Of a stretch of 64,000 nucleotides of DNA, positions 51,077 to 64,000 are shown one piece after another. The translations under genes and the position numbers were made by a program. The stretch's first letter is position 1. Each line of letters starts with the position of its first letter. Source of the DNA: Cyclobacteriaceae bacterium (GTDB lineage Bacteria > Bacteroidota > Bacteroidia > Cytophagales > Cyclobacteriaceae); assembly GCA_047632435.1 (NCBI GenBank), contig JBLICU010000005.1:15-64014 (forward strand), read 5' to 3'. The notes beneath the pieces are model-generated. The model did no database searches. It was not told the origin of the DNA and saw nothing but the letters and a program-made list of their open reading frames with translations.

Positions 51077-51964
51077 TTATCCGCCCGTAAAATATTCCGG
51101 CGATTTGAATAGTTTATCGTAAACCGACTTATCATTGAATATTTCAGCTTCATTGAAACTTGAATTCAACACACCTTCAGCAAATGATTTCACGGTAATG
51201 TCATCGCTACCATTTAAATGAATGATCATCTCTTTATCCGATTCACCAACTGTACCATCTTCAAATTTCTTACTGGTGATGATTCCGAGTCCATTCAGAT
51301 ATTGGGCAACATTGGCTGAATCAGCGGCAACTCCAGCCATGGACCACTTACCATTTGACCCCTTCAACAAGGTATAAGTGCCTGCTGCATAATTGAAATC
51401 GATCGAGTTGATTGAGTCCTTTTTCAATCTCACAATTTGATTGTTTCGATAATCAGCAGCTGTTTTGCCAATACTCATCGCCATGAAATTGTTTGCTACA
51501 TAAGTATCTTCGTCCTCCTCCAACCTCACATAAGAGTAGTAGGAACGCTGACCTTCTACACCAAATCTGCCAAGAATTAAATCCAGGGCCTCATCAGAGC
51601 CTTCGTAGATTTGAACTCTGGTTCCAGTAGAATCTACTTGAAAATCCTGCCATGAAGTCTTTGAGCGTGAAGCAAGTCGCGAAGGCTTGATGGTATTGAG
51701 ACTGTTGAGCATGGAGCGAACTGAAGCGGACATTGCATTTTTATCTTCATTTACAATCCACGCGCCTTCTTTTTTAGCCAATACTGTATTTATTCCACCG
51801 CTGGATATTTCCACTCTGGTCACACGTGCAGTGTCTATATCCACCAGCACTTCTCTGTAGGATTTGCTTCTCGCACCTCCAGAAGTAAGTTTCACGATGG
51901 CATATCCACCAGCCAAAACACCAAGAATAAGTAAAAGCTTTATTGTTGTATTTCCTTTTAACAT
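51077..51964 (-). CDS. DUF4340 domain protein
   Basis: N-terminal anchor. Lies directly downstream of the GldG-like gene, the usual context for DUF4340. Confidence 0.75.
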   Translation of the reverse strand: MLKGNTTIKLLLILGVLAGGYAIVKLTSGGARSKSYREVLVDIDTARVTRVEISSGGINTVLAKKEGAWIVNEDKNAMSASVRSMLNSLNTIKPSRLASRSKTSWQDFQVDSTGTRVQIYEGSDEALDLILGRFGVEGQRSYYSYVRLEEDEDTYVANNFMAMSIGKTAADYRNNQIVRLKKDSINSIDFNYAAGTYTLLKGSNGKWSMAGVAADSANVAQYLNGLGIITSKKFEDGTVGESDKEMIIHLNGSDDITVKSFAEGVLNSSFNEAEIFNDKSVYDKLFKSPEYFTGG

Positions 51965-51975
51965 AGCTCTAAATT

Positions 51976-53481
51976 TTAGTTGTAGTTACCCTGCATCCAT
52001 CTTTGACGCCTTTTGTTATTTATTTGCATTCTCACCAGAGCATAAATCAATAGCAACAATACTGGAGCCAACACATTACCCCACTTCAATATCAATTTCG
52101 TGCTGTCTTCCACTTGTTCCAATGGTCTAGAGGTAATGCCTTTGGTTCTAAGGTCAATCAGACCAGTGTCATCTGCAATCCAATCAATGCTGTTAGCAGC
52201 TAGATTCACATTGTCCTGGCTCAATTGCTGTGGTTTTTGGCCTTCACCATTTACAATAAAAGCTCCATTGGTGATCAGCGTGAGTCTAGACAGACCTTTT
52301 TCCAAACCGGCTGCCATAATCTGCTGGCCGGCATTAAAATCACTATCCTTCCATTTCTTCTGGACATCTATGTATGTGGGTGGGTTCACCAATCCTGATT
52401 TCTCAGATGAATAAATCAGTGGGACAAAAGATGAAGCCGTGTCAGCTGCTGTAAAAGTAATATTACTCGCAAATGGTAACATCAGAGACTCCAAACCATT
52501 GGTGATAGCATGATCTTCAAAATCTGAAACCTGAGGAAAATAAGGGAACATCACCTGACTATTGATTGTGAAGAAGCCCTGTCGCTGCTGCACATTCACA
52601 TTGGCGCATGAAGCATCAATCACAAAATTATCACCAATTGATAGACCTCTTTTTGCTAACCACCTCTTCATACCGACATCAGTGGTCTTAGAAAGCAGTC
52701 CTTTCTGCAAGTCGCCTTCTACATTGGAGTAAGCGATAAACATCCCTCCGCCATTGTTCAAATACTTGTCAAATTTCGCGAAATCACCAGCATCTACTGT
52801 ATCAGTTGGGTTGACCCAAATCAATGATCGATAATAGCCTGGCACTACAGAAGTATCCCTAATGTTGAGGGGTTCTACATCATAAAGCACCGAAAGTTGC
52901 TCCATCAACTGACCCATGGCCTGTGGAGTAGGTTCACCATAACCTTGAATTACTCCAAGTTTAGGTTTGTCCGTGATGGCGATTTTTTTGATCGCGGTTG
53001 TGAGCGAATATTCCAAACCAGCTCCGGGTTGGATCAATGGTATGATTTCCGTTCGGTCTTCCATCTTTAGCACTGCTCCCATATATGCTCTGAGTTGCTG
53101 TACCTGATCTCGTTCCTGAACATTGACCATTACCGGACCTATGCCTTGTTGCTGTGCTTCTTTCTCCATCTCCTCGCTTTCGTTTGGATTGATAAATTCA
53201 AAAACCACATTTCCACCTGAACGATTTTCATATTCAACGAGCTGATCTTTGAAATCCTGTTTGCTTTTCAAAAGCTGGGCAGGTAAGTCTTCTGAGAAAT
53301 ATGCTTTGATCGTGATGACACCATCCAATTCGTTAAGCACATCTTTTGTTGCTTTACTAAATGTGTATCTATTGTCTTCCGTAAAATCCAACCTGAAATA
53401 CAGGCTGTTTGATATCAAATTGGCTACCAGAATAATGGCCAAAACGATTACCAATTGTAGTATGATATTCTTTTTGTTCAT
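51976..53481 (-). CDS. GldG-family ABC accessory protein
   Basis: FRLDFTEDNRYTFS, FEFINP, EYSLTTAI and LIDLRTK..T.RPL. ATG 53481. Confidence 0.85.
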   Translation of the reverse strand: MNKKNIILQLVIVLAIILVANLISNSLYFRLDFTEDNRYTFSKATKDVLNELDGVITIKAYFSEDLPAQLLKSKQDFKDQLVEYENRSGGNVVFEFINPNESEEMEKEAQQQGIGPVMVNVQERDQVQQLRAYMGAVLKMEDRTEIIPLIQPGAGLEYSLTTAIKKIAITDKPKLGVIQGYGEPTPQAMGQLMEQLSVLYDVEPLNIRDTSVVPGYYRSLIWVNPTDTVDAGDFAKFDKYLNNGGGMFIAYSNVEGDLQKGLLSKTTDVGMKRWLAKRGLSIGDNFVIDASCANVNVQQRQGFFTINSQVMFPYFPQVSDFEDHAITNGLESLMLPFASNITFTAADTASSFVPLIYSSEKSGLVNPPTYIDVQKKWKDSDFNAGQQIMAAGLEKGLSRLTLITNGAFIVNGEGQKPQQLSQDNVNLAANSIDWIADDTGLIDLRTKGITSRPLEQVEDSTKLILKWGNVLAPVLLLLIYALVRMQINNKRRQRWMQGNYN

Positions 53482-53492
53482 TGCTCTATAAT

Positions 53493-54218
53493 TTATGATT
53501 GCCAATTTCTTTTTGAAAGCATGATTTGCGATAGCAAAGTGCCCAATACGATGATTGAAAGGAAGTATACCAAATCACGGCTATCCACAACTCCTCGACT
53601 GATTGATTCGAAATGAACGCTCATGCTTAGGTAGTTGAGTATTTCCCCTGTGACACCTCTGATGGTACTGCCCAGGACATCAAAAAGCAGTTGGAACATT
53701 ATGCCTATAGCCAGCGCAAATAGAAATGCCACAATCTGGTTTTGAGTAATACTGCTCGCGAAGAGTCCGATACTGATATAGCTCGCTGATAAAAGCAACA
53801 AACCAAAGTATCCGCCGATCACGGCTCCATCATCAATATTTCCCAATTGGCTAATGGTGATGTAGTAGGGCAAAGTGGTCAATAAAGCCACTCCTACCAA
53901 AATCAGACAAGCCAGAAATTTTCCCCATACAATCTGGCGATCGGAAATGGCTTTGGTTATCAAAAGCTCAATCGTTCCTGCTCTGTTTTCTTCAGCTATC
54001 ATCCTCATCGTGATAGCGGGAATGAAAAAGAACAAAGACCAAAAAGCAATGCTAAAAAACACCTGCATGGTGGCCTGGCCAATAAAAAACACGTTGGTAT
54101 TAGCCAACCATGTAAATATGCCGCTCAACAATAGAAACAATGTGATCAGCACATAGGCGATGAGCGAGTCAAAAAATGACGCTAATTCTCTTCTTGTTAT
54201 TATCCAAATTTTACCCAT
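53493..54218 (-). CDS. GldF-like ABC-2 permease
   Basis: RRELASFF.S.IAY, PAITMR.IAEE...GTIELL.T and SRGVVDSRD. Confidence 0.87.
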   Translation of the reverse strand: MGKIWIITRRELASFFDSLIAYVLITLFLLLSGIFTWLANTNVFFIGQATMQVFFSIAFWSLFFFIPAITMRMIAEENRAGTIELLITKAISDRQIVWGKFLACLILVGVALLTTLPYYITISQLGNIDDGAVIGGYFGLLLLSASYISIGLFASSITQNQIVAFLFALAIGIMFQLLFDVLGSTIRGVTGEILNYLSMSVHFESISRGVVDSRDLVYFLSIIVLGTLLSQIMLSKRNWQS

Positions 54219-54225
54219 CTCTCTA

Positions 54226-55149
54226 TTATTTAGTTAGTTTTTGGAATACATCTTCCAGCCTGGTTTCCATCCCAGTCATTTCCATCAAATACCATTTATT
54301 CTTTACGCAAAGGTCAAAAACCTCTTTTCTTGAGGACATTTCAGGCTTGCTCTGCACATTGAACCAACCATACTTTCCATCAACTCCAGTGACCTTTTCT
54401 ACAGAACCAAGTGCCCGAACAGCACTTTCAACTTTGGCAGGATCTGCTTCAATATTGATTCTCAATAGTTCCTGACCCTGCGATTGTGATCGCAAAGTAT
54501 CTGAAGTTCCATCAGCCACTATGCGTCCACGATTGATGATCAAAATGCGATCACAGGTGGCCTCTACTTCTGATAAAATATGTGAGCTTAGAATAACTGT
54601 TTTCTCCTTACCGAGATCTTTGATCAGTTTACGGATTTCCACTATCTGATTGGGATCCAATCCGGTGGTCGGTTCATCCAAAATCAGAACTTCCGGATGG
54701 TGGATCATCGCTTGTGCCAAACCAACCCTTTGCCTGTATCCCTTGGATAGCTCGTTGATGTTTTTGTGTTTTTCTCTATCTAATCCACACTTTTCGATCA
54801 TTTCGCCAATTCGTGTGGAAATCAATTTTCTATCAACACCCTGAACTTCCGCTGAAAATCTGAGATAATCAACAATGGGCATATCCAGATACAGCGGATT
54901 GTTTTCAGGTAGATAACCGATTTTCTTTTTTATCAACTCAGGATCGCTATGGATTGAGTTCCCGTCAAGTCTCACATCACCTGATGAAGGAGCCATAAAG
55001 CAGGTTATAATCTTCATGGTGGTGCTTTTACCCGCACCATTTGGCCCAAGAAAACCAACAACCTCCCCTGTCTTCACCTCAAATGATATGTCATTAACCG
55101 CTTTTTGCTCACCGAATTTCTTGGTAAGATTTTCTACTATTATTGACAT
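54226..55149 (-). CDS. GldA-like ABC ATP-binding protein
   Basis: GPNGAGKSTT, LSKGYRQRVG and ILDEPTTGLDPNQ. Confidence 0.9.
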   Translation of the reverse strand: MSIIVENLTKKFGEQKAVNDISFEVKTGEVVGFLGPNGAGKSTTMKIITCFMAPSSGDVRLDGNSIHSDPELIKKKIGYLPENNPLYLDMPIVDYLRFSAEVQGVDRKLISTRIGEMIEKCGLDREKHKNINELSKGYRQRVGLAQAMIHHPEVLILDEPTTGLDPNQIVEIRKLIKDLGKEKTVILSSHILSEVEATCDRILIINRGRIVADGTSDTLRSQSQGQELLRINIEADPAKVESAVRALGSVEKVTGVDGKYGWFNVQSKPEMSSRKEVFDLCVKNKWYLMEMTGMETRLEDVFQKLTK

Positions 55150-58230: not shown

Positions 58231-60933
58231 TTATTGATTCTTACTTGACTCGAATCTCTCCTTGCTATGTTCTTTCATTTCACTGGGAGACTTCCCAAAC
58301 CGCTTTTTAAATAATTGACTGAAATGGGCCAGGTTTTCCATACCGCATTCGTAGGCTATTTCGGAGACAGTATTTTCTTTCGAAGACTCTAACAACAAAC
58401 GCGCTTTTTGCAGTCTTATTTCCCGAATATATGAAGCAGGAGGTTGACCTGTCACCAATTTTACCCGCCTATTAAAATTGCGCTCACTCACTGTAAAGTG
58501 ATAAGCCATATCCGTATTGGAAAGATTCCGATTCCTCAAATTTTCAATAATATAATTGTCCAACTCCAATTTGAAAGATTTTTGCTTTTCGATAGAAAGA
58601 TCAGGAATAATACTTCCTGCAAACTCTATCCTCTGTCTCGATATTTCAAGTAAGTTTTTTATCCTCACGCTAAGTTCATCCAGATCAAAAGGCTTGATGA
58701 TGTAGTCATCCACACCCAGGTTCAGCACTTTTACTTTGTCCTCACTTAATGTTCTTGCAGTAAGGAATATGATGGGGATATTGGCCCATTTGTTTTGTGC
58801 TTTAATTTGTTGTGCCAATTCATAACCATCCATTTCTGGCATCATATAATCTGTGAGGATCAGATCAGGAAGCAACGAATTATTAAGCTTTTTTAAGGCA
58901 CTTTCACCATCAGCCGCTTCCACTATATTATACTCCGTCAGTTTATCTGCCAGATAGCCCCGCATGTCAGCATGATCCTCCACAATCATGAGGGTGAGTT
59001 TAGACGCATCTATTAGGTTTTCAATATGCTCTTGGTTGTCTGTATCAGGGTCTTTTTGGATTGAATTTGGGAAACACAAGCTAAACGTTGAGCCCTTACC
59101 AAGCACACTTATGCAATTCACCATCCCTTCATGTAATTCCACAAATTCTTTGACTATGGAAAGACCAATTCCAGTGCCGATTTCAGGCTTGATGGTAGCC
59201 GATTGAAAGAAGCGATCAAAGATTCTTGGAAGCTCTTTTTTTGAGATTCCTCTCCCTTCGTCGCTGACTTCTACCCAGAGCTCGCACTCTTTTTCCATAA
59301 CTTTAATAAGAATATTTCCAGGCTCATCACTGTATTTGATAGCATTGGAAATCAGGTTGATCATTATTTTTTCAAACTTGTCCTGATCCACCATAGCCAT
59401 GGTGGAGTCATGCGCATGGGTAATAAAAATGGTTTGCCGCTTTTGCCGAGCAAAGGGATCTAAAGTCTCCTTGATATTTTTGATGACCTGTACCACATCC
59501 ATGGGCTGACGGATAATTCCCAACTCACCTTTGTCCAATTTGGCCAAGTCGAGCATCTCATTAACCAGCTGAAGTAGGTATTTGCCATTTTTCAGAGACA
59601 AATTCAATTCCTTTTTTACCTCATCAGATAATTCACCATTCTTGATTGTGTTTTCTAGCGGAGATAGGATCAGCGTAAGTGGTGTTCTTAGTTCGTGCGA
59701 TACATTATTAAAGAACTTGGTCTTTAGTATCTCAATTTGCTTCATTTGCTCCTTTTCTTCCCTCAATTTTTCTATGGTCACATCTCTTCTGATAGATTCG
59801 TCTTGCAACCGGAAATAGTTACGGAACAAGTTTAATGTGAAAAGAGTATCACGTAATATAAAACCTAGAAACACTGCGTTAGTTGTGACAAAGTGATGAA
59901 CAATAAAACCGCTTAAGGCTAATACCATAACCAAAGCTGCTAGAATAGATAATCCATTTGCTAGTATAAATATTTTACACTTCTGTGAGTCAATCCTCCA
60001 TGTGATAGCAACTGAATAGATAATGATAACTAAGCTTATAAGAAAATAGGAAGTAGAAATCCATGGAAAAAAATGACCATTTGAAATAAATATTGACGAA
60101 ATAACTAACGGAAAAATTGGAAAAACTAAAATGTAATGAATTGTCTTTGACGACTGATATACGTTTAGAAAATACGCTGTAAATAAGTTAAATGAATAGA
60201 TAATTAGTACAGCAATTATTAGTTCTGTATAATTCAATTCAATCGCTGACATGCCGATCATATCTACAAAAATTTGGGCATTAAAGTTGGATAAAAAGAT
60301 GCCTGTGAGAATGAAAAACGCATAGGAATATCCTGTCTTACTTGGTTTTAGGTAAATCAAGAAGAGATTGATCATCAAAATGATCAACTCCATTCCAGTC
60401 AATAATGTGTAAGTGGTAAGAATGTTTTTTGATTGATAACCAAGATCTTCTGCAGTACAAACTTCGATATGTGAGAGGGATCTATTATAAATCGAATTCC
60501 CTGTTTCGCTAATTAGTTTAATATAAATGGGGTCTTTAGTTTTTTCTATTTTAAGCACATGCCGATAGAATCCTCTCTTGTAGGAACGGTTTTCAAAATC
60601 TACTAATCTTCCTGTAATGGAAAATGGCTGTGTGCTTCCGCCAGAATAAGCTTCAATTCGATCAAAAAAATTGGAAAACAATAAATAATCCGCGCCCTTT
60701 AGTATACTCGGATCAATTTTAATCCAATAGAAATTGATAGTTGAAGACAGGTCCGCATAGTCTTCGAACTGAATTTCACCCTTTTCTTCTAAAGTAAATA
60801 GCTCCTCAAAAGACAAATTAGTAGTATCCGCATAGATTTTAAACTGATCATAGCTTAACCTTTCTCCGGCCTTAGCAGATAGAAATGAAATGAAGGTTGA
60901 TCCAATCAGGATAAGTCCAAAAATAGAGCGCAT
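58231..60933 (-). CDS. Hybrid sensor/regulator: periplasmic domain + 7TM (7TMR-DISM-like) + HisKA + HATPase + REC + AraC HTH
   Basis: Signal peptide, seven hydrophobic helices, SHELRTPLT, NLISNAIKY, intact REC (PDLILTDYMMPEMDG) and AraC C-terminus. Confidence 0.92.
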   Translation of the reverse strand: MRSIFGLILIGSTFISFLSAKAGERLSYDQFKIYADTTNLSFEELFTLEEKGEIQFEDYADLSSTINFYWIKIDPSILKGADYLLFSNFFDRIEAYSGGSTQPFSITGRLVDFENRSYKRGFYRHVLKIEKTKDPIYIKLISETGNSIYNRSLSHIEVCTAEDLGYQSKNILTTYTLLTGMELIILMINLFLIYLKPSKTGYSYAFFILTGIFLSNFNAQIFVDMIGMSAIELNYTELIIAVLIIYSFNLFTAYFLNVYQSSKTIHYILVFPIFPLVISSIFISNGHFFPWISTSYFLISLVIIIYSVAITWRIDSQKCKIFILANGLSILAALVMVLALSGFIVHHFVTTNAVFLGFILRDTLFTLNLFRNYFRLQDESIRRDVTIEKLREEKEQMKQIEILKTKFFNNVSHELRTPLTLILSPLENTIKNGELSDEVKKELNLSLKNGKYLLQLVNEMLDLAKLDKGELGIIRQPMDVVQVIKNIKETLDPFARQKRQTIFITHAHDSTMAMVDQDKFEKIMINLISNAIKYSDEPGNILIKVMEKECELWVEVSDEGRGISKKELPRIFDRFFQSATIKPEIGTGIGLSIVKEFVELHEGMVNCISVLGKGSTFSLCFPNSIQKDPDTDNQEHIENLIDASKLTLMIVEDHADMRGYLADKLTEYNIVEAADGESALKKLNNSLLPDLILTDYMMPEMDGYELAQQIKAQNKWANIPIIFLTARTLSEDKVKVLNLGVDDYIIKPFDLDELSVRIKNLLEISRQRIEFAGSIIPDLSIEKQKSFKLELDNYIIENLRNRNLSNTDMAYHFTVSERNFNRRVKLVTGQPPASYIREIRLQKARLLLESSKENTVSEIAYECGMENLAHFSQLFKKRFGKSPSEMKEHSKERFESSKNQ

Positions 60934-61136
60934 GATTAAAAATAGAGCTATTTCATTCCTCCAACAACCCGCTTGACTATTGGCGAAAGGTGAACTTAAT
61001 GATATTCAGACCAGTCAGAAAGTCTAAAACACCCCTTGCTATGAATTAGGGCCTAAAAAGACTCAAATTTTTCTTTTATAGCAAAAAATGGCATGTCGCA
61101 AATGAGATAAAGAATGTCAGGAATTTGATAGTGAAC
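60790..61136. repeat. Dispersed duplication, copy 1 (kinase 5' end + divergent promoter region)
   Basis: Aligns by eye with ~61870-62221 (offset 1090, then 1085 after a 5-nt indel). Example: AAACTGATCATAGCTTAACCTTTCTCCGGCCTTA is identical at 60841 and 61931. Confidence 0.9.
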
Positions 61137-61656: not shown

Positions 61657-61815
61657 ATGAAAAAACAAAAACTGTCCTTTAATAAATCTTTGATCAGGTT
61701 CCATAAGTACCGCAGAAAACTCCAACGACTGGAGTTAGCCTGGCACAACCAGCGCCGACAAGGTATGCTGCAAAAGCACATAGAAAGGCTACATGGATGG
61801 CTCAGCGCTATGATA
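61657..61815 (+). pseudogene. 5' remnant of a probable large secreted protein (basic N-terminal leader)
   Basis: MKKQKLSFNKSLIRFHKYRRKLQRLE...LQKHIERLHGWLS is an amphipathic basic leader. It then runs directly into the antisense strand of the kinase remnant. Confidence 0.45.
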
Positions 61816-62018
61816 CTCGCGCAAAAACCAAATCAGAGAGTTCTCCAAATCGGCCAAACACAATTTTGCCCTGGCTTGCTAATCTTGATTGCTCCTCAAA
61901 AGACAGATCAATGGTATCGGCAAAGATCTCAAACTGATCATAGCTTAACCTTTCTCCGGCCTTAACAGATAGAAATGAAGGTTGATCCAATCAGGATAAG
62001 TCGAAAAATGGAGCGCAT
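61808..62018 (-). pseudogene. Truncated, frameshifted paralogue of the 7TM hybrid kinase 5' end
   Basis: ATG 62018 gives MRSIFRLILIGSTFISIC* (5-nt deletion relative to 60933). The other frame reads SFLSVKAGERLSYDQFEIFADTIDLSFEE versus SFLSAKAGERLSYDQFKIYADTTNLSFEE in the intact gene. Confidence 0.85.
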
Positions 62019-62221
62019 GATTAAAAATAAAGGTATTTCATTCCTTCATCAACTAGCTCGACTATTGGAGAAAGGTAAGCTTAAGCACATTCAGACCAGT
62101 CGGTAAGTCTAAAACACCCTTTGCTATGAATTAGGATCTAAAACGACTCAGATTCCTCTATTATAGCAAATAATGGCATGTCACAAATGAGATAAAGAAT
62201 GTCAGGAATTTGATAATGAAT
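61870..62221. repeat. Dispersed duplication, copy 2
   Basis: See copy 1 at 60790-61136. Confidence 0.9.
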
Positions 62222-62296: not shown

Positions 62297-64000
62297 ATGA
62301 AACACTTATTCTACTCTTTTCTACAATTGAAATCAAGTAAGCAAATTCAGAAGACCATTATGGTTTTTGTTTTAACACTTCTCTGTGGAAGCACATTCGC
62401 CCAGACGATCTCCATTCAGGGTGTTCTTCGCGATCCCAACGGACGATCTGTGGACGATGGATCTTACAGTGTTACCTTCAAAATCTATGATGCTGCAACA
62501 GGAGGCTCTACACTATGGACAGACACCTATACCAGTTTGCAGACCAAGCATGGAGTATTTCAAGCCAATTTAGGTGAGCAAACCTCATTAGATGGTTTGG
62601 GATTTGATACACAGTATTTCGTAGGAGTAACAGTAGAGGCATATGCTGAAATGACGCCAAGGATTGCTTTAACAATCTATCCATATGCGAAAGCGATTCT
62701 TGGTCAAGATAATAAGTTCCCTTCCGTAGGAAATGTAGAAATGGCCACTGACGACTTCATCATTCATGAAGGAGAATTGAGATTAGCAGGAGCAGGTGGT
62801 AGAATATTATTCAATGACGGTACATCACTAAACACTGCTAATTTCGGCGGTCCAGCAGGCTCACTGCTCAATTCTTCTAATGTTAACATAAATGCGGACA
62901 ATATCGCCGACTTTTCAGGAGCAATCAATTTTCAGACACGTGGAACCACTAGAGCTTCGATTGCAAATAATGGAAATGCAACTTTCAATGGATCAATAAA
63001 TGCTGCATTTGGAATTTCGTCAGGAACTTACAATACCAGTATAGGATCAATAAATTTATATGGACCTGATGCTGCTTCTGCTTCTGGTGGTCAATTAAAT
63101 CTTTATACAAGCGACACACGGGCTACAGAAAAATGGTATATGCAACCGGTTGAAAACAATTTGATTCTCGGTCATGAAACAGGAGGAGCATTCCCCACTG
63201 TTGCAACTTTTAGTTCAGCAGGCACTACGTTAGCAGGTACTACTGTAATTGATGCATTGACTGTTTCATCAAGTACTACATTATCAGGTACTACTGTAAC
63301 TGATGCCTTGACAGTTTCATCAGGTACATTAACAGTTTCGTCAGGTTCGGTGGCAGTTGGTTCAAATTTTTCTGTTTCAGACAATGTTATATCAGCAGGA
63401 ACATCCAATACGACCAAAGGTATATTACAATTATATGGTTCTAATGGAGCAACCGGTGGCCAAGCAAATTTTTACACAAATGCAGGACAGGCTGTCTCAA
63501 AATGGTTTTTGGAAACCAATGAAAATGATTTCGCGATAGGTCACGAAAACGCAGGATCATTCCCTATTTCCGCATATTTTGATTCGAGTGGTAGTATTGG
63601 TATAGGAGATGATACACCTACTGAAGGCAGACTTGTTGTAAAAGGTTTAGGCGTAGGAGGTACCGTAAGTTTGCTTTCATATTTAGAGGGTGCTGGTGCT
63701 GGAAATACTCCAATTCCGAGTTTCTCGAGCGCTTTTGGTATTTATGCCGATGGAGGTGTTGTAAGTGAAGCTGGTTTTTACGTTATTTCTGATAAGAGGG
63801 TAAAAGAAATACAACGGAGGACAAATACGAGTGAGGATTTAGATGTATTCAGTAAATTAAACGTGACGGATTATGAATTTATCGATAAAGTTCAACACGG
63901 TGATAAAAAAGAGAAGAAGCTAATAGCTCAAGAAGTAAGAGCCGTTTACCCACAAGCAGTATCATTAAGTAAAGGAATTGTCCCGGATATTTATGCTAAG
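62297..64000 (+). CDS. Secreted phage-tail-fibre-like protein with peptidase S74 intramolecular chaperone domain (3'-truncated by window edge)
   Basis: Hand-translated 568 codons with no stop. Signal peptide ends ...GSTFA/Q, then an N-domain QGVLRD...YSVTFKIYDAATGG..LW...PR...YPYA and a G/S/T-rich shaft. C-terminus has the S74 signature FYVISDKRVKE (SD at 63788) and LIAQEV..VYPQAV. Confidence 0.88.
   Translation, partial: MKHLFYSFLQLKSSKQIQKTIMVFVLTLLCGSTFAQTISIQGVLRDPNGRSVDDGSYSVTFKIYDAATGGSTLWTDTYTSLQTKHGVFQANLGEQTSLDGLGFDTQYFVGVTVEAYAEMTPRIALTIYPYAKAILGQDNKFPSVGNVEMATDDFIIHEGELRLAGAGGRILFNDGTSLNTANFGGPAGSLLNSSNVNINADNIADFSGAINFQTRGTTRASIANNGNATFNGSINAAFGISSGTYNTSIGSINLYGPDAASASGGQLNLYTSDTRATEKWYMQPVENNLILGHETGGAFPTVATFSSAGTTLAGTTVIDALTVSSSTTLSGTTVTDALTVSSGTLTVSSGSVAVGSNFSVSDNVISAGTSNTTKGILQLYGSNGATGGQANFYTNAGQAVSKWFLETNENDFAIGHENAGSFPISAYFDSSGSIGIGDDTPTEGRLVVKGLGVGGTVSLLSYLEGAGAGNTPIPSFSSAFGIYADGGVVSEAGFYVISDKRVKEIQRRTNTSEDLDVFSKLNVTDYEFIDKVQHGDKKEKKLIAQEVRAVYPQAVSLSKGIVPDIYAK

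Follow-up and report, generated by a model that had tools for sequence, protein, structure and literature searches.

The window analysed here, a stretch of 64,000 nucleotides, corresponds to positions 15-64014 of an 84-kb contig (C5:15-64014; contig coordinate = window + 14). An ORF scan permitting open ends identified a plus-strand reading frame (entry 62210/62297..64000, 3'-open) that opens at 62297 and continues past the window end. The default ORF track missed this gene, as the first-pass annotation had recognized, because the frame is 3'-open at the window edge. The 3' extension proposed there was carried out by reading the contig and yielded a complete protein of 705 aa from the ATG at 62297, with the stop codon 414 nt past the window end (window-equivalent 64412-64414; L002:4412-4414), followed by two T9SS cargo genes. 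The signal peptide, N-domain, shaft and S74 motif that had been described from the incomplete frame are all present in the full-length protein (Table 1). The best homologues of the fibre were from Cyclobacteriaceae MAGs; a search of the genome contig collection with the full-length fibre found no relative.

Table 1. Features of the fibre locus and its flanks (aa numbering is that of the 705-aa fibre)
Feature	Position	Strand	Basis
Hybrid sensor kinase/response regulator/AraC-type regulator, 900 aa, divergent	58231..60933	-	ORF
Copy of the kinase 5' end and promoter region, directly 5' of the fibre gene	61857..62220		Direct repeats
Predicted signal peptide, aa 1-35 (MKHLFYSFLQLKSSKQIQKTIMVFVLTLLCGSTFA/Q)	62297..62401	+	Read from sequence; A-Q junction conserved
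MAT-type N-terminal beta-rich domain, aa 36-135	62402..62701	+	NF053851 match, AF2, profile
Conserved neck, aa 136-235 (KAILGQDNKFPS.GNV ... GRI.FNDGTSLNTANFGGPA ... INAD ... INFQ)	62702..63001	+	Alignment
Variable Gly/Ser/Thr-rich shaft, aa 236-497	63002..63787	+	Composition, repeat, alignment
Predicted autocleavage/catalytic motif, S498-D-K-R-V-K503	63788..63805	+	Conservation, PF13884 match position 1
S74 intramolecular chaperone module, aa 498-705	63788..64000, cut by window end	+	PF13884, profile
Partner gene (a), 2344 aa	L002:4440-11474 (window-equivalent 64440-71474)	+	ORF, domain matches
Second T9SS cargo (b), 982 aa, He_PIG/Big_9 and sorting domain	L002:11471-14419 (window-equivalent 71471-74419)	+	Domain matches

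Genomic context of the fibre gene

Upstream of the fibre lie genes for the hybrid kinase, an amidohydrolase, an ABC transporter (gldAFG-like), a thioredoxin-like protein and a TPR protein, while downstream the two T9SS cargo genes are followed by genes for a desaturase, a GMC oxidoreductase, RraA, isocitrate lyase and malate synthase. Over some 15 kb upstream and 20 kb downstream of the fibre, not one gene for a phage, tail or baseplate protein was found. With regulators, T9SS cargo and metabolic genes as its neighbours, the gene is chromosomal and outside any prophage, as had been claimed. The four-gene neighbourhood recurs in five other genomes, where its flanks differ and the proteins are only ~40-50% identical. 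Two further attributes fared less well: domestication of the fibre is at most a possibility, as its family is huge and cellular and transfer between phage and cell may have run in either direction, and a gliding host was not established. The T9SS proteins SprA and PorU are encoded in the genome, and the ABC transporter upstream is gldAFG-like; matches to GldJ in a search of the genome failed to reach the cut-off.

The divergent hybrid two-component/AraC regulator probably controls the fibre operon. At the orthologous position, an HK-RR-AraC hybrid is present in three other loci and TPR-GerE or 7TMR-DISM proteins are present in two. The copy of the kinase 5' end directly 5' of the fibre gene has its original at 60767-61135 and is made up of two direct repeats (D1, 249 nt, 89%; D2, 123 nt, 81%) at a spacing of 1085-1090 nt. 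No terminator-like site was present at the gene junctions between fibre and cargo. A sigma-70 promoter and terminator scan, which is unsuited to Bacteroidota promoters, gave results at background level.

Domain organization of the fibre

The predicted Sec signal peptide, as read from the sequence, has a K-rich n-region, a hydrophobic stretch (IMVFVLTLLCGSTF) and then A-Q; all 22 homologues share Q36, right behind which the conserved domain begins. The N-domain is 70 to 85% identical among orthologues and was modelled by AF2 as beta structure (pLDDT 76-85). The neck is strongly conserved over 22 orthologues, in contrast to the shaft after it, which is hypervariable and indel-rich in the same 22-sequence alignment. 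Gly, Ser and Thr together account for 40.5% of the shaft, versus 14% of the C-terminal module, and an internal repeat comprises two ~95-aa modules (aa 241-330 versus 366-460; 39% identity, E 2e-19); beta modules were modelled in the shaft with a pLDDT of 70 to 84. A weak RicinB_lectin_2 match in the fibre (E 0.087) was rejected as noise. The AF2 monomer of the whole fibre had a mean pLDDT of 62, with parts of the shaft and of the S74 N-part below 50, and its top Foldseek match was the Bd2133 MAT fibre 8OND (E 6e-4), a weak match with a TM of 0.1 to 0.2; in a separate monomer of the C-terminal module the S74 N-part was likewise poorly modelled.

The suggested Pfam search matched PF13884 (Peptidase_S74) at residues 498-555 with 29-30.2 bits, above the gathering cut-off of 22 bits. 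The codon of S498 maps exactly to 63788, where the serine of SDKRVK had been placed. The 22 homologues all have S498, and among them D499, R501 and K503 are each at least 90% conserved, with Ser and Lys five apart in an S-D-x-x-x-K pattern (S498-DKRV-K503). The fibre is probably self-cleaving at this predicted S74 site. A beta-barrel insert of ~65-70 aa (aa ~557-628; AF2 pLDDT 82-94), which in weak Foldseek matches resembles the N-terminal beta-barrel of F1/V1-ATPase, divides the S74 module into two halves, and AF2 placed a helix at aa 645-691 as the C-terminal coiled coil.

Among solved structures, the best match of the C-terminal module, covering both halves and the helix after them, was the MYRF ICA (7DC3; E 7e-15, in two pieces); profile positions 159-221 aligned with MYRF ICA residues 117-178, by which the second chaperone half was found. 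Unlike in MYRF, a eukaryotic membrane-bound transcription factor, the two halves in the fibre are split by the insert. The same profile matched phage fibre 6F45 (E 7e-7) and phi29 gp12 (3GUD; E 0.02). Like phage S74 fibres and spikes (K1F endosialidase, T5 pb1, phi29 gp12 and the long-tail-fibre distal subunit), the protein appears to carry a C-terminal, probably self-cleaving Ser/Lys trimerization chaperone; unlike them, it bears a Sec signal peptide, its N-domain is cellular where theirs serves virion attachment, and its gene has no phage context.

Relation to MAT fibres

MAT (mosaic adhesive trimer) fibres were first described in 2024 (Caulton et al., PMC10769870). The only recurrent NCBIfam match of the N-domain was NF053851 (Bdello_MAT_N), a Bdellovibrio subfamily model with a curated cut-off of 60 bits, which matched fibre residues 30-97 under that cut-off (E 1.1e-4, 22 bits). 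Because of this difference in score, the fibre lies outside the Bdellovibrio subfamily and only in the wider MAT superfamily. The model also matched 17 of the 22 orthologues (best E 1.4e-5) and 62 of 80 family representatives (best E 7.5e-11), in every case N-terminally. A profile search with the N-domain retrieved 36,280 clusters, in which the match nearly always starts at residues 20-35. The tips of the 80 representatives are mosaic: S74 in 40, Gp10_C in 9, Collar in 8, Lcl_C in 4 and Gp34_trimer, Gp53-like_C and the Peptidase_G2 IMC in 1 each. These results uphold the relation to Bdellovibrio MAT fibres that the first-pass annotation had drawn. At the level of sequence, the N-domain is distantly homologous to that of the Bdellovibrio MAT fibres, a homology read from the NCBIfam model, and the fibre is a cell-made member of the MAT superfamily, S74 subgroup. 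To our knowledge, the solved MAT structures do not include the N-domain.

As a protein, the fibre is new but of a kind already known, Bacteroidota MATs having previously been listed (Caulton et al. 2024); MAT members from the "FCB group," S74-like tips included, appear in Supplementary Table S3 of that paper (PMC10769870). Like the S74 MATs of Bdellovibrio bacteriovorus (e.g., Bd3182), it has a signal peptide, directly followed by a conserved beta-rich N-domain, a fibre body and a C-terminal S74 chaperone with SDxxxK, tips are swappable in the family, and the genes are chromosomal and in some genomes multi-copy. Unlike those fibres, it comprises 705 aa rather than ~1000 aa, its N-domain shows only a distant relationship (22 bits, cut-off 60), its S74 module is divided by the beta-barrel insert, and in its T9SS host it is operonic with T9SS cargo bearing a conserved module. 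No such partner is described by Caulton et al. 2024, in which the binding partner of the N-domain is unidentified and the Discussion poses the N-domain ligand and the crossing of, and retention at, the outer membrane as unanswered questions (PMC10769870).

T9SS cargo downstream of the fibre

Partner gene (a) begins 25 nt past the fibre stop, wholly outside the window, and encodes a signal peptide, a module of ~55 aa (aa ~29-89), Laminin_G_3 domains (E 4e-38) and a T9SS type-A sorting domain (Por_Secre_tail, E 2e-8; TIGR04183, 40 bits). Cargo gene (b) overlaps gene (a) by 4 nt, and its product matched He_PIG (E 7.5e-11) and Por_Secre_tail (E 2e-8). As Ig/LamG-repeat proteins of 2344 and 982 aa with type-A sorting domains, the two neighbours resemble SprB-type T9SS giant adhesins. 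Unlike SprB-type cargo, the 705-aa fibre showed no match to a T9SS sorting domain (PF18962 or TIGR04183), and the N-terminal module of the partner is covered by no Pfam family. A sorting domain (CTD) of its own was found in only 1 of the 80 N-domain proteins.

The arrangement is conserved. In all six orthologous loci the fibre is followed, after a gap of 25-30 nt, by a LamG-CTD giant (~2340 aa), and a He_PIG-CTD gene is also present in five of the six. The second N-domain fibre of the genome (contig C55) has a Big_9/He_PIG CTD protein 7 nt after it. In other genera, a CTD gene lies directly downstream in 10-11 of 19 evaluable loci, versus ~2% of genes genome-wide, and is missing next to the fibre in about 6 of the 19 (about one third). 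A 323-aa paralogue in the same genome as the fibre (contig C82) carries S74 and then a type-A T9SS sorting domain, which contradicts the earlier argument that S74 cleavage would conflict with a C-terminal T9SS signal; this paralogue lacks both the N-domain and a partner. The best clue as to how the fibre is exported and anchored comes from the two T9SS cargo genes past the window end.

A module shared by the partners

The ~55-aa module of the partner also occurs in tiny T9SS-tagged proteins adjoining other such fibres. In other lineages these small partners (~180 aa) consist of a signal peptide, the module, a linker and the sorting domain. Comparison of the module of partner (a) with that of the small partners by hhalign gave 92% (E 6e-7), and a mixed module profile, of which partner (a) is itself a seed, found partner (a) in its own genome (E 5e-20). 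The first module HMM, for which small partners were used, had no match in this genome. In a search with a second HMM, which excluded own-genome sequences, the C55 partner came first (E 0.019) and the 2344-aa partner was missed; the latter is thus linked to the small partners through profile-profile comparison and the mixed profile only.

Among 301 genomes, 28 had both module and N-domain, 19 the N-domain only, 3 the module only and 251 neither (Fisher p 1e-23; p 2e-12 without seed genomes). A fibre gene lay within 1.5 kb for 33 of 43 module matches, on the same strand in 32 of the 33. Since 19 of the 47 N-domain genomes are without a module match and about one third of the loci are without a CTD gene, the partner is either non-universal or missed by a short, weak profile. 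We found no paper reporting the tag-less fibre with its adjacent LamG T9SS cargo, the shared module or the co-occurrence.

Discussion

We lean, with some reserve, toward a MAT-type S74 fibre that is docked on a module of its T9SS-exported operon partner and is exported or anchored via that partner. By what is known of the family, the fibre would be exported by Sec, with the signal peptide removed before Q36; the C-terminal S74 intramolecular chaperone would nucleate trimerization, and self-cleavage dependent on Ser498 and Lys503 would free the 208-aa chaperone. A mature chain of ~460 aa would be left, in which the end of the variable shaft would be exposed as the adhesive tip. For the subsequent steps, we infer that the fibre docks on the partner: the invariant N-terminal ~200 residues of the fibre would bind the ~55-aa module at the N terminus of the partner, a role that would fall to the 2344-aa LamG adhesin-like protein here and to the minimal ~180-aa protein in other lineages, and the C terminus of the partner would provide T9SS passage, covalent surface anchoring or both. 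Because the partner would be anchored through its C terminus, the fibre would sit at the distal, N-terminal end of the partner. We know of no precedent for the piggy-back export of a partner-bound trimer through the T9SS, which counts against docking.

It is somewhat unlikely that the T9SS cargo proteins are merely co-regulated companions of the same MAT-type S74 fibre in one adhesion or foraging programme, with a T9SS-independent route for the fibre and with the shared module serving another role, such as folding, glycosylation or interaction with T9SS shuttle proteins. Bdellovibrio MATs are surface-exposed without any T9SS (PMC10769870), so that the T9SS is in principle dispensable for MAT surface display, and the N-domain genomes without a detectable module and the loci without an adjacent CTD gene also fit this account. 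Against it, the tiny partners are barely more than module and sorting domain and are hard to explain except as adaptors or anchors, the adjacency is tight and strand-specific, and CTDs are nearly missing from the N-domain proteins themselves.

That the protein is a secreted, trimeric glycan-degrading enzyme, a depolymerase resembling a tailspike or endosialidase, and not an adhesin is quite improbable. S74 was first described on endosialidases, and the neighbourhood encodes lectin-like LamG domains, but Pfam, NCBIfam and PDB profile searches of residues 136-497 revealed no catalytic domain, and the shaft, with its short length, its repeats and its hypervariability across orthologues, fits a binding tip more readily than an active site. 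Least probable by far, and already largely refuted, is the reading of the protein as mobile-element remnant or cargo (a tail fibre from a prophage, a tailocin or an extracellular contractile injection system), to which a PHROG tail-fibre match (phrog_1980, E 2e-10), the typical occurrence of S74 in phage fibres and its reported presence in eCIS fibres would point, but against which stand the lack of phage, tail and baseplate genes nearby, a Sec signal peptide, which is absent from phage fibres, a neighbourhood kept in five other genomes at low protein identity and an N-domain common to 36,280 cellular-type clusters.

Docking of the fibre on its operon partner also leads to a broader and more tentative proposal. 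MAT-type fibres, together with proteins that combine the module and a sorting domain, could form a widespread two-component surface-fibre system of Bacteroidota, in which the module is the ligand of the MAT N-domain and the partner supplies T9SS export and A-LPS anchoring to fibres that have no sorting domain because a self-cleaving chaperone or a tip occupies their C terminus; the fibre described here, self-processed and trimeric, would be mounted at the distal end of a 2344-aa LamG stalk.

If docking is untrue, the fibre gene belongs, as an ordinary member, to a large family that already has a name. The locus and its relatives offer a genetically testable candidate, a short module on a T9SS partner that is syntenic and co-occurs with the N-domain across the phylum. 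If docking is true, it would reveal the means by which Bacteroidota present trimeric, self-cleaving, phage-like adhesins, it would mean that one T9SS cargo carries or anchors a second, tag-less protein, and it would account for tens of thousands of "tail fiber domain-containing protein" annotations.

Domain architecture of the fibre

The fibre gene was absent from the default ORF track because its frame runs off the window at 64000; an ORF listing with open ends allowed showed an unterminated frame from 62210 (TTG) or 62297 (ATG). The window comprises bases 15 to 64014 of an 84,124-bp contig (C5) in a genome of 3.9 Mb and 198 contigs, and extension of the fibre on C5 gave a protein of 705 aa from the ATG. 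The first-pass annotation, which had noted the ORF-track miss, described a signal peptide, an N-domain of ~100 aa, a Gly/Ser/Thr-rich shaft, and an S74 domain with the serine of SDKRVK at 63788. Each part was recovered, the serine at exactly that position. Among 22 aligned homologues, Q36 and S498 were invariant, and D499, R501, and K503 were at least 90% conserved. The shaft is internally duplicated (residues 241 to 330 versus 366 to 460; 39% identity, E = 2e-19).

Features of the fibre, its surroundings, and the other S74 loci of the genome
Feature	Location	Details
Signal peptide (predicted)	fibre N-terminus	K-rich n-region, hydrophobic core, A-Q end; read from sequence
N-domain	fibre residues 36-135	strongly conserved among homologues
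Shaft	fibre residues 236-497	Gly+Ser+Thr 40.5% versus 14% in C-terminal part
Peptidase_S74 (PF13884)	fibre residues 498-555	29-30 bits, cut-off 22
Catalytic motif SDKRVK (predicted)	Ser at residue 498, window 63788	
Insert in S74 module	fibre residues 557-628, window 63965 to 180 nt past window end	small beta-barrel, AF2 pLDDT 82-94
Long helix	fibre residues 645-691	follows insert; AF2
Transporter gene set	window 51077-55149 (-)	GldA/GldF/GldG-like: ABC_tran, ABC2_membrane_2, ABC_transp_aux + DUF7088; plus DUF4340
Direct duplication, ~370 bp	window 60767-61135 and 61857-62220	81-89% identity, spacing 1085-1090 nt
60-aa ORF	window 61808-61990 (-)	resembles hybrid kinase N-terminus (…KAGERLSYDQF.I.AD…LSFEE…)
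Second fibre locus (L014/L015)	C55:92-21069	in order: 2353-aa cargo, caspase-like Peptidase_C14, ECF-type sigma factor, DUF4384, 1288-aa fibre, 1240-aa cargo
Third S74 locus (L016)	C82:12277-13293	323-aa paralogue: signal peptide, short N-part, Peptidase_S74 108-180, T9SS type-A sorting domain 246-320

A 15-homologue profile covering residues 470 to 705 gave matches among solved structures to the MYRF intramolecular chaperone auto-processing domain (7DC3, E = 7e-15), to the distal subunit of a phage long tail fibre (6F45, E = 7e-7), and to the neck appendage of phi29 (3GUD, E = 0.02). Since the MYRF match falls in two pieces (profile positions 15 to 92 and 159 to 221), an insert of ~65 aa splits the chaperone. 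The insert is kept in all orthologues, and its barrel is similar to the crown domain at the N-terminus of F1/V1-ATPase subunits (rmsd of ~3.4 Å over ~75 residues). The first half of the S74 domain and much of the shaft were poorly modelled by AF2 as a monomer, as would be expected of an intertwined trimer.

The fibre belongs to the mosaic adhesive trimer superfamily

The sole NCBIfam match of the fibre was Bdello_MAT_N (NF053851; residues 30 to 97, E = 1.1e-4, 22 bits, cut-off of 60), the N-terminal family of Bdellovibrio mosaic adhesive trimer (MAT) proteins. When proteins were scanned singly, NF053851 was matched by 17 of 22 orthologues and 62 of 80 wider-family representatives (best E = 7.5e-11), and no other NCBIfam family recurred in either set. 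Among 1.84 billion representative proteins, 36,280 clusters matched the N-domain profile at E ≤ 1e-3, and 15,226 did so at E ≤ 1e-10; the proteins span 117 to 1542 aa, and the domain nearly always starts at residues 20 to 35. In our phylum sample the domain occurred in 47 of 301 genomes and 36 of 144 genera, at 1 to 13 copies per genome. A few proteins (P0061, P0114, P0127) carry two or three N-domain-like stretches per chain.

The tips of the 80 representatives varied: Peptidase_S74 (40), Gp10_C (9), phage tail Collar (8), Lcl_C (4), and Gp34_trimer, Gp53-like_C, and Peptidase_G2 IMC (1 each). This is the same pattern of constant base and swappable tip that defines the Bdellovibrio MAT family (Caulton et al. 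2024, PMC10769870); Supplementary Table S3 of that study lists MAT proteins of Saprospiraceae, Salinivirga, Kordia, Patiriisocius, and Dokdonia, the last with an "S74-like" tip. Some Bacteroidota genomes (e.g., G049, G128, and G133) have 12 to 13 paralogous fibres with the N-domain, which often stand in tandem, a number similar in scale to the 21 MAT genes in Bdellovibrio. A Foldseek search with the whole model lends weak support: the top PDB hit was the Bd2133 MAT fibre (E = 6e-4), at TM-scores of only 0.1 to 0.2. Judged by its sequence, the fibre is a new, distant member of the known MAT superfamily, outside the Bdellovibrio subfamily defined by NF053851. The core of the earlier proposal, a chromosomal, exported, S74-bearing MAT-like fibre, thus stands.

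A conserved locus with T9SS cargo genes

Downstream of the fibre lie two genes with T9SS type-A sorting domains, encoding a 2344-aa Laminin_G_3 protein (the partner; 25-nt gap) and a 982-aa He_PIG/Big_9 protein (4-nt overlap with the partner gene). No terminator-like site was found at either junction in a terminator scan, and the fibre and cargo genes are probably co-transcribed. Fatty-acid desaturase, GMC oxidoreductase, RraA, isocitrate lyase, and malate synthase genes follow. Genes upstream encode a 900-aa hybrid kinase/response-regulator/AraC protein, amidohydrolase and acyltransferase enzymes, an ABC transporter of GldA/F/G-like type, and thioredoxin-like, DUF2807, and TPR proteins. A prophage tail module, for which the PHROG tail-fibre matches might speak, is rejected: these were the only PHROG matches and were confined to the fibre itself, and the flanks (~15 kb upstream and 20 kb downstream) are free of phage genes and contain regulator, T9SS cargo, and metabolic genes, in keeping with the absence of phage context first reported. 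The description of the organism as gliding is unproven; the GldA/GldF/GldG-like set hints at gliding-type machinery, although elsewhere in the genome GldJ fell short of its NCBIfam cut-off.

The closest fibre homologues are 35 to 53% identical; those with names come from Cyclobacteriaceae MAGs and are annotated "tail fiber domain-containing protein." Five could be placed on contigs and were compared with our locus. In all six, the fibre is followed after 25 to 30 nt by a Laminin_G_3 protein of 2328 to 2404 aa, with a sorting domain in most, and in five the next gene encodes a 980- to 1350-aa He_PIG protein with a sorting domain. The upstream regulator is a hybrid HK-RR-AraC protein in four loci; of the remaining two, one has TPR-GerE and the other 7TMR-DISM. 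The outer flanks vary between genomes. In our locus the 5' end of the kinase gene and its upstream region were copied to a site immediately 5' of the fibre gene; this lengthens the intergenic region between kinase and fibre to 1.36 kb, versus ~240 to 290 bp in orthologous loci, and the 60-aa ORF is a truncated kinase duplicate left by this event.

Fibre genes pair with a specific module of T9SS cargo

A sorting-domain HMM iterated on the ORFs of this genome retrieved 67 ORFs (~2% of genes). It was used to scan 20 N-domain loci from other genera, 19 of them evaluable. The next gene downstream on the same strand had a sorting domain in 10 to 11 of the 19, versus ~0.4 expected by chance; in two further loci it was the adjacent upstream gene that had one. 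Many partners found in this way measure just 160 to 225 aa, comprising a signal peptide, a conserved stretch of ~50 aa (approximately S..S.GG...........T.GQ...G.........GFW), a linker, and a sorting domain. Giant partners start with the same module (residues ~29 to 89 of the 2344-aa neighbour, INYSISNVTLNGGSVPYISNDDGSAQITIGQTYLGPSGSFNQGISARNGFWGHYLLEPQGP), and profile-profile comparison of the small- and giant-partner modules gave 92% probability (E = 5.7e-7, 52 columns). The module has no Pfam family.

In the same 301 genomes, the module profile matched 31: 28 had both module and N-domain, 19 the N-domain only, 3 the module only (all weak), and 251 neither (Fisher P = 1e-23). With the 19 seed genomes removed, the counts were 13, 15, 3, and 251 (P = 2e-12). 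Thirty-three of 43 module matches had an N-domain gene no more than 1.5 kb away, and 32 of these matches were on the same strand (21 downstream, 11 upstream). Only 1 of the 80 N-domain proteins had a sorting domain of its own. These patterns indicate that the link of the fibre to T9SS cargo is general and tied to a specific module. As our locus shows, this module can also form part of a giant LamG adhesin, encoded in a conserved operon that is linked to a regulator.

Other S74 proteins in the genome

A genome search found three S74 domains. The second belongs to a fibre on contig C55 that has the N-domain and S74 and is followed 7 nt on by a Big_9/Cadherin_5/He_PIG T9SS cargo protein with sorting domain and partner module; 6 kb upstream lies a LamG/cadherin/fn3 sorting-domain protein. 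The third, on contig C82, showed neither a MAT N-domain nor a partner. Its sorting domain (TIGR04183, 24.7 bits, cut-off of 23) follows S74, so the two can coexist in one chain, contrary to the presumed conflict between S74 cleavage and a C-terminal T9SS signal. The second gene downstream of it encodes an OMP beta-barrel. The genome encodes the T9SS proteins SprA (2310 bits) and PorU sortase (1154 bits).

Discussion

From established knowledge of S74 proteins (endosialidase, T5 pb1, Bd3182; PMC10769870), the fibre would be exported by Sec, trimerise from its C-terminus, and cleave itself through Ser/Lys before S498, releasing a 208-aa chaperone. The mature chain would be residues 36 to 497, with the variable end as tip. 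The genomic statistics suggest that the invariant N-terminal ~200 residues of the fibre dock on the N-terminal module of the partner, which may take the fibre through the T9SS, anchor it, or both. Because T9SS cargo is attached via its C-terminus, the distal end of the 2344-aa protein would carry the module together with any fibre bound to it. Against docking, no partner was detected in 19 of the 47 N-domain genomes, with a module profile that is short and weak, and in Bdellovibrio MAT fibres are displayed in the absence of any T9SS.

Full-text literature searches returned no paper linking S74/MAT fibres with T9SS cargo, and the anchoring and function of MAT fibres are still described as open questions in a 2025 review. 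The coupling of fibre and partner probably constitutes a system with a candidate mechanism that would be open to direct testing.
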